This document shows positions 15,739 to 15,792 of a DNA stretch of 64,000 nucleotides, piece by piece. Source of the stretch: Escherichia coli. Its GTDB lineage: Bacteria; Pseudomonadota; Gammaproteobacteria; Enterobacterales; Enterobacteriaceae. Made by a program: the position numbers and the translations under genes. The stretch lies in NCBI RefSeq assembly GCF_001677475.2, contig NZ_CP015229.1. The stretch is one strand, 5' to 3'. Every line of letters begins with the position of its first letter. The first letter of the stretch is position 1. Under the pieces are notes generated by a model. That model saw only the letters and a program-made list of their open reading frames with translations. It was not told the DNA's origin and did not search any database.

Positions 15739-15792
15739 TTAGTTATACGTTTAGTTATACGGGCTGGCGTATAACTAAAGCCGTATAACTAA
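15739..15792. repeat. candidate integrase arm-type sites, four copies of TTAGTTATACG (two direct, two inverted)
   Basis: 15739-15749, 15751-15761, 15768-15778 (inverted), 15782-15792 (inverted), just upstream of int. Confidence 0.5.

Follow-up and report, generated by a model that had tools for sequence, protein, structure and literature searches.

Putative integrase arm-type sites on both arms of a PICI-type satellite in an Escherichia coli tRNA-Pro gene

The integration target of P4 is tRNA-Leu, and the integrase (Int) arm repeats of its attP reportedly go back to work by Pierson and Kahn in 1987. In the P4 record (NC_001609), the 12-mers annotated as 'attP arm sequence repeat' form a tandem pair that precedes the 20-bp core by 77 bp and a co-oriented tandem pair at +132 after it, with an inverted copy lying over the int ATG. 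Arm sites may overlap the int promoter and allow the integrase to repress its own gene, as described for KplE1 IntS and, in the part of the same source given to P4, for P4 Int (PMC2951348). Gram-negative phage-inducible chromosomal islands (PICIs) follow the order int, alpA, replication genes and late genes (PMC6092414, PMC10111431). In one subset, the helper-embedded PICIs, a doubled and co-oriented motif with a 12-bp period lies near -81 and +132 relative to the attP centre (PMC10111431, 2023), and its binder was left open between the arm domains of Int, AlpA or something unknown (PMC10111431). The AlpA of EcCICFT073 activates its own promoter and has no effect on Pint (PMC6092414). In PICIs residing at Pro-tRNA, 'DNA damage' of the tRNA fragment at attR has been reported and proposed to cripple the tRNA gene upon excision (PMC10111431).

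Against this background, the present analysis concerns an island within a 64-kb stretch of Escherichia coli DNA (hereafter, the window). The island is a satellite of PICI type whose repeats are most likely integrase arm sites laid out as in P4; the design is long known and no new mechanism comes to light. Six copies of TTAGYTAYACG are most likely arm-type sites for the P4-family Int of the island, and together with a 17-bp core and two IHF-type bending sites they would form an attachment site in the style of P4. For a widespread tRNA-Pro satellite family, the exact ends are thereby fixed along with a likely architecture of protein and DNA, and sequence-based evidence is brought to an open question in the literature, namely whether Int or AlpA acts at the doubled attP motif of Gram-negative PICIs. 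The modest value added lies in this evidence, which favours Int, in a geometry that stays constant while recognition sequence and Int N-domain swap together, and in the recognition of this element as a natural hybrid of arm subtypes. Such knowledge can be used to annotate island boundaries, to predict which islands are still mobile and to engineer orthogonal integrases.

Anatomy of the island and its attachment sites

Gene order and flanks identify the element as a Gram-negative PICI-type phage satellite of ~11 kb, residing in tRNA-Pro(GGG) between the Escherichia genes yejM and yejO (Table 1). All island genes lie on the plus strand, in the order int, alpA, DUF4222, D5-type primase, SSB, capsid E, decoration D, a second AlpA-domain gene, Nu1-like TerS and PerC; int, alpA and pri run in a single direction between direct repeats within 11 kb, in keeping with the marks by which such PICIs are recognised, namely this arrangement, a length of about 10-15 kb, a specific att site and a near or complete lack of tail and lysis genes. 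Int carries Arm-DNA-bind_3 (residues 8-94, E 4e-23), Phage_int_M and Phage_integrase domains in Pfam, its N-domain has homologues in the PDB (3JU0, 3JTZ), and it shares 34% identity with P4 Int over the full length. The product of alpA is a candidate activator or excisionase. No portal, protease or large terminase was recognised in the head region (22242-24859), and the lambda-type head module of the satellite is thus incomplete. IMG/VR contains a sequence identical to 15825-26052 (L009), and the island overall is a patchwork of segments common to different relatives. Most of those relatives, including L001, L004-L007 and L169, have one or two PerC genes; in L169 (E. coli strain C5) the right-end cargo at 13195-15621 consists of a toxin with an S-type pyocin domain, an immunity gene and a PAAR-domain gene.

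Table 1. Features of the island and its two attachment sites, in window coordinates.
Feature	Position	Strand	Basis or remark
tRNA-Pro(GGG) gene proL, integration target	15540-15616	+	ARAGORN; yejM-tRNA-Pro-island-yejO order in E. coli records
attL core, 17-bp identity block CTCTCGTGCCGACCAAA	15602-15618	+	sequence, core search
Island-borne hairpin and T-run in place of the native tRNA terminator	15653-15687	+	terminator scans; stem kept in relatives
IHF consensus match AATCAAGTGATTA (WATCAANNNNTTR), spacer between core and P' arm	15660-15672	-	consensus scan
Putative arm-type site P'1 TTAGTTATACG, first unit of doubled 12-bp repeat	15739-15749	+	+137 from core start
Putative arm-type site P'2 TTAGTTATACG	15751-15761	+	+149 from core start
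Putative arm-type site P'3, inverted TTAGTTATACG	15768-15778	-	+166 from core start
Putative arm-type site P'4, inverted TTAGTTATACG	15782-15792	-	+180 from core start; 33 bp before int ATG
int, P4-family tyrosine integrase, 413 aa	15825-17066	+	Pfam; alignment to P4 Int
alpA, 68-aa AlpA/Vis-family HTH protein	17566-17772	+	Pfam PF05930; PHROG 'excisionase and transcriptional regulator'
Lambda-like major capsid E	22242-23369	+	
Lambda-like head decoration D	23379-23720	+	
Second AlpA-domain protein	23732-24115	+	
Nu1-like small terminase	24305-24859	+	
PerC-family transcriptional activator gene, near right island end	25681-26052	+	
Conserved block AATTGTAYAYTTTTKCAGCAAAY, directly left of P-arm pair	26486-26508	+	in 7/7 aligned E. 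coli-type attR arms
Putative arm-type site P1 TTAGCTACACG, type-C variant	26513-26523	+	-84 from core start wherever attR found
Putative arm-type site P2 TAAGCTATACG, type-C variant	26525-26535	+	-72 from core start
IHF consensus match AATCAAATAGTTA, spacer between P arm and core	26567-26579	+	overlaps apparent third, weak motif copy
attR core, intact 17-bp CTCTCGTGCCGACCAAA copy of tRNA 3' end	26597-26613	+	sequence, core search

An earlier note on this DNA had described a motif present four times next to int, twice direct and twice inverted, and this description holds to the letter: TTAGTTATACG matches exactly at 15739, 15751, 15768 and 15782, that is, 33-86 bp 5' of the int ATG, as two direct units with a 12-bp period followed by two inverted ones. 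Four copies compare with 0.01 expected in the 64-kb window, four or more occurred in 0 of 100 shuffles, and an exact search of the window returned none beyond those next to int. With up to two mismatches allowed there are 16 matches in the window against ~10.4 expected, among them the attR-side pair TTAGCTACACG and TAAGCTATACG; the two units are co-oriented, repeat the 12-bp period of the 15739/15751 pair, and precede the core of attR by 84 and 72 bp (the 12-mer TTAAGCTATACG that had been given for this arm is the TAAGCTATACG site at 26525 with the T preceding it). Pairs of sites on the same strand and 10-14 bp apart number three in the window, every one of them at the island ends, and any such pair arose in 2 of 300 first-order Markov simulations. 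As single two-mismatch matches are common (~10 per window) and same-strand pairs at 10-14 bp are not, it is the pairing that constitutes the telling feature. At the same tolerance the motif was found neither 5' of alpA nor elsewhere in the island, save for one two-mismatch match within the primase gene, and a literature search for the motif string matched only an unrelated aptamer paper.

The arms in which these copies lie are built around a core, CTCTCGTGCCGACCAAA, that is unrelated to the arm motif. On the left, the 3' end of proL has been rebuilt from island DNA and an island-borne terminator follows it, the native tRNA-Pro terminator now being displaced past attR (26621-26651). Matches to the IHF consensus number seven in 64 kb, two of which lie between arm sites and core, one per arm, a placement read at the level of consensus matches. 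The left of these sits in the loop of the island terminator hairpin and shows 0-1 mismatch in most relatives, by an alignment read by eye, having been lost in L004 via a 1-nt deletion; in the right one, the columns AAATCA..GTTA are conserved in relatives. An apparent third P-arm copy at 26573 (ATAGTTACACA) was rejected as an arm site, its conserved columns being those of the IHF consensus match AATCAAATAGTTA. Just past the island terminator, GTTTTYAGTCAYCG (15690-15703) is invariant or nearly so in 7/7 aligned attL arms and looks like the first bases of the arm motif (TTAGT-A); it may represent one more, weak, arm site or part of some other signal. On the right, the AATTGTAYAYTTTTKCAGCAAAY block is kept in all E. 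coli-type attR arms while sequence further left diverges, and may be the site of an accessory protein. At this block, a minus-strand ATG at ~26504 opens a short ORF in the window and in L007, a start that is absent from L001 and L002.

The earlier reading of the motif as a set of integrase arm sites is supported by the Arm-DNA-bind_3 domain of Int, by the co-orientation of the motif on both arms and by a P4-like geometry. The excised circle would run from P1-P2 through an IHF site to the core, and from there through a second IHF site in the replacement terminator, P'1-P'2 and P'3-P'4 to int. An Int tetramer would place its N-terminal domains on the arm sites and its catalytic domains on the cores, with DNA bends induced by IHF letting one Int bridge arm and core, as in lambda and P4; the resulting integrative and excisive complexes would carry the island into, and out of, tRNA-Pro. 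Since int and the 17-bp core are intact, it is plausible that attL and attR of this island constitute a functional pair.

The inverted copies P'3 and P'4 fall in the stretch that must contain the promoter or 5' UTR of int, and in P4 and some relatives the final inverted copy reaches up to the int ATG or overlaps it. From this position just 5' of int, they would let Int repress its own gene, an autorepression that is likely by analogy, as it is by sites of this kind that P4 Int and KplE1 IntS both repress their own genes. No int promoter emerged from a sigma-70 scan of 15450-15900, and a TATAAC within the inverted copies, checked by eye, had no acceptable -35; with no int promoter located, autoregulation of int is something that we infer.

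Relatives at tRNA-Pro and the hybrid arms of this island

Relatives occupy the same site in ~440-450 of 5,426 complete E. coli genomes (~8%). The comparison drew on E. coli elements at tRNA-Pro (L001, L002, L004-L007, L169, L170) and on further tRNA-Pro elements from E. albertii (L089), an Enterobacteriaceae strain (L091), Erwinia psidii (L093), Citrobacter (L094), Escherichia sp. (L095) and Pantoea stewartii (L096). Two others, L090 and L092, carry the same motif with no tRNA or core upstream in the available sequence. IMG/VR supplied 80 loci of limited use: only four include attR, and attL is missing from most of the contigs because they begin exactly at int.

Whatever the sequence of the sites, their positions in the tRNA-Pro relatives are the same: -84/-72 on the P arm, +136/+148 (±1) on the P' arm, and inverted copies at ~+165, +179 and sometimes +197. 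The only change in length is a 10-bp P'-arm insertion in L002 and L004, a CACCGGAWAY-type repeat between the core and the P' sites (L002 14131-14141; L004 ~16014-16024) that puts the first P' site at +147. All P' sites are thereby displaced by exactly one helical turn, which preserves their helical phasing relative to the core. On the seven-locus attL alignment, ~80% of columns are invariant within sites against ~29% in the flanking arm. Two motif classes occur among the tRNA-Pro relatives, TTAGYTAYACG and TTRGGACTAG, and the class is the same at attL and attR, 5-14 kb apart, in every relative in which both ends are seen. More distant relatives that target ssrA have TTGGTACAC-like units.

Two records deserve separate mention. 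L092, from Edwardsiella hoshinae, has the same four-site arrangement at 9914-9968 (TTAGCTATACG type) beside an int of 75% identity; neither tRNA-Pro nor the CTCTCGT core was found upstream in the available sequence, pointing to insertion elsewhere or to rearrangement of the left end. L008, the ssrA-targeting Klebsiella 'phage' Kp4865-2 (Int 55% identical), has a tandem TGGCGACAGA pair (2151-2171) upstream of an ssrA fragment and an inverted TTTTAGGCACCT pair by int (2440-2484). Unlike the tRNA-Pro family, its two sides share no common motif; the boundaries of the record are uncertain, and it was left out of the weighing for and against.

At the right end, most relatives, and most of those in E. 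coli, have suffered a small attR-core deletion of variable length that starts right after CTCTCGTG(C): L001 (25603-25620), L002 (23625-23640), L004 (27605), L005 (24137), L006 (24104) and L007 (30050), as well as L016, L030, L041, L089 and L094. A full copy is kept in the window, L091 and L093. These deletions match the 'DNA damage' of PMC10111431.

The E. coli relatives can be sorted into three subtypes. Subtype A has TTAGTTATACG throughout (L001, L002, L004, L016, L030), subtype B has mixed T/C at position 5 (L005, L006, L089), and subtype C has TTAGCTAYACG at attL with TTAGCTACACG and TAAGMTAYACG at attR (L007, L169, L170, L041). The window does not fall into any one of them: its Int N-domain and attL are type A and 100% identical to L001, while its attR pair, TTAGCTACACG and TAAGCTATACG, is identical to that of the type-C elements L170 and L041. 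Of the 14 typed loci the window is the sole mismatch, attR pair and Int N-domain type being in accord in the remaining 13. By sliding identity int is itself a mosaic, 100% L001-type from attL to ~16250 (codon ~140), ~100% L170-type over ~16260-16900, and like both thereafter. The island, whose Int and attL are type A while its attR arm is type C and its int gene a mosaic, is a recombinant hybrid. The copies near attR had been called degenerate in the earlier note; their positions at 26513-26535 were recovered by the search with up to two mismatches, but the description does not stand, as they are the exact P-arm pair of the L170/L041 sister subtype. On these identities, the attR copies did not arise by random decay: they make up a sister subtype's cognate pair, brought in by recombination.

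What such a mixture means for the mobility of the island depends on how strictly arm sites are recognised. As the P arm belongs to another subtype than the Int N-domain, this copy of the island may recombine poorly; the mixing of T and C at position 5 in type B suggests some tolerance. More speculatively, the Int N-domain and its arm sites may form an exchangeable specificity cassette, in which a near-identical catalytic domain and geometry are combined with different motifs (TTAGTTATACG, TTAGCTAYACG, TTRGGACTAG) to give orthogonal recombination groups among satellites that compete for one and the same tRNA-Pro site. This is a tentative proposal, with perhaps one chance in four of being right. 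If true, the groups would be unable to excise or resolve each other, and the window island would be a natural inter-group hybrid whose proficiency in recombination would gauge the strictness of specificity.

Int, AlpA and other explanations for the repeats

The foremost alternative is that the repeats are sites for an AlpA/Vis-type protein, acting as an arm-bending excisionase or as an activator of int, and are not Int sites at all. Part of its appeal is the doubled repeat itself: the sites of recombination directionality factors (RDFs) are typically direct repeats spaced by about one helical turn (PMC7498355), and the period here is 12 bp. This tandem period is a feature common to RDF sites and arm sites, and so does not discriminate between them. 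Furthermore, CP4-57 AlpA is reported to raise int expression, by way of a citation in PMC6092414, and AlpA was left open as binder of the analogous doubled motif in PMC10111431. The distribution of the motif speaks against AlpA: it lies on both arms and in both orientations, and has no copy at alpA's own promoter region, though it is this promoter, and not Pint, that the AlpA of EcCICFT073 activates. The equivalent repeats of P4, moreover, are annotated as att arm repeats.

Covariation among relatives points in the same direction. Int N-domains are 48-57% identical from one class to the other, and those of the TTAGYTAYACG class share at least 69% identity among themselves. Outside the N-domain, the Int of L096 (TTAGYTAYACG) is 90-93% identical to those of L093-L095 (TTRGGACTAG). 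AlpA identity is not split by motif class: L002 and the window have identical motifs and AlpA proteins that are 68% identical, and L096 has a different motif from L093 and L094 with AlpA identities of 70-72%. The motif class thus partitions with the Int N-domain and not with AlpA or the catalytic part of Int, which favours the Int N-domain over AlpA as the probable binder and leaves the AlpA alternative unlikely. One must consider that the P arm, core, P' arm and int 5' end are contiguous within ~600 bp in the circular form, so that co-inheritance of motif and Int could partly reflect linkage and not selection. Linkage leaves unexplained why at least six copies per element are kept alike at fixed positions. 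Overall, the interpretation of the motif as integrase arm sites, as first proposed from the window, is well supported at the level of sequence, and gains further from the equality of motif class at attL and attR wherever both ends are seen and from the way in which this class tracks the Int N-domain.

A second alternative places the function of the copies next to int mainly in a hairpin of RNA or DNA, serving as an attenuator or an additional terminator to shield int from the tRNA gene with its strong transcription, or as a control on int translation. The stretch 15730-15830 does fold into a 25-bp hairpin, P'1/P'2 pairing with P'3/P'4, at -34.3 kcal/mol (z = -4.56; 0/200 shuffles as good); a TTTTTT (15800-15805) lies 3 nt past it and is conserved in type A and B relatives, and complementarity survives the switch of motif class. 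A palindromic protein site would, however, give the same apparent covariation, the T-run is absent in type C and other relatives, and the spacing of direct and inverted units differs (12 vs 14 bp). A hairpin explains neither the co-oriented attR pair, which has no inverted partner, nor the single consensus that runs across all copies beyond mere complementarity. As the main function of the repeats a hairpin is therefore very unlikely. It could instead be a layer added to arm-site function and not an alternative to it, and in elements of types A and B the hairpin with its T-run might help to terminate transcription or to control translation.

That the repeats are chance or a relic without present function, in an island that is fixed and decaying, can draw on the deleted attR cores of many E. 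coli relatives, the broken int of some and the mismatched arm subtypes of the window, but is scarcely credible in the face of the statistics (4 vs 0.01 expected; 2/300 simulations), a strict conservation of position and sequence across genera while flanking bases drift, and a full-length int and intact core in the window. Replication iterons and cos or pac sites were set aside as explanations, as motif copies are confined to the att arms.

Comparison with known systems

Among the systems that invite comparison, KplE1 (CPS-53) attL/intS and lambda attP resemble the present arrangement in their general plan, with a heterobivalent integrase, both arms bearing arm-type sites and IHF sites being placed between these and the core. 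Their arm sites differ from those of the island in sequence, number and spacing. Relative to KplE1 in particular, TorI/Xis sites have no identified counterpart here, and autoregulation is put forward by analogy in an island where no promoter was located.

Helper-embedded PICIs come closer, sharing the int-alpA-pri organisation and a tandem co-oriented doubled motif that occurs twice (PMC10111431). Their motif is tgTGTATTGCa, reported as not found in other PICIs, their targets are the late genes of prophages, and inverted copies go unmentioned there (PMC10111431). Where that work left the binder open, the covariation described here favours the Int N-domain over AlpA.

P4 differs in its repeat (TTGGGGGCAYA as against TTAGYTAYACG) and in an Int of 34% identity, in having one inverted copy where the window has two (and type C relatives three), and in its target, which is tRNA-Leu and not tRNA-Pro. 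The island is, moreover, not a P2-dependent element such as P4 but a satellite of PICI type, whose capsid and decoration genes are lambda-like and which also has a Nu1-like gene. The likeness extends through the rest of the attachment site: an Int whose N-terminal domain belongs to the same family, a tRNA gene that is entered at its 3' end, a co-oriented doubled 12-bp repeat on each arm at closely similar distances (~-77/+132 in P4; -84/+137 here), an inverted copy or copies before or over the int start, and a repeat unit that begins with TTRG in both. Taken with the alignment of the two integrases over their full length, the matching arrangement of arm repeats makes the layout of the island that of P4, with another recognition sequence.
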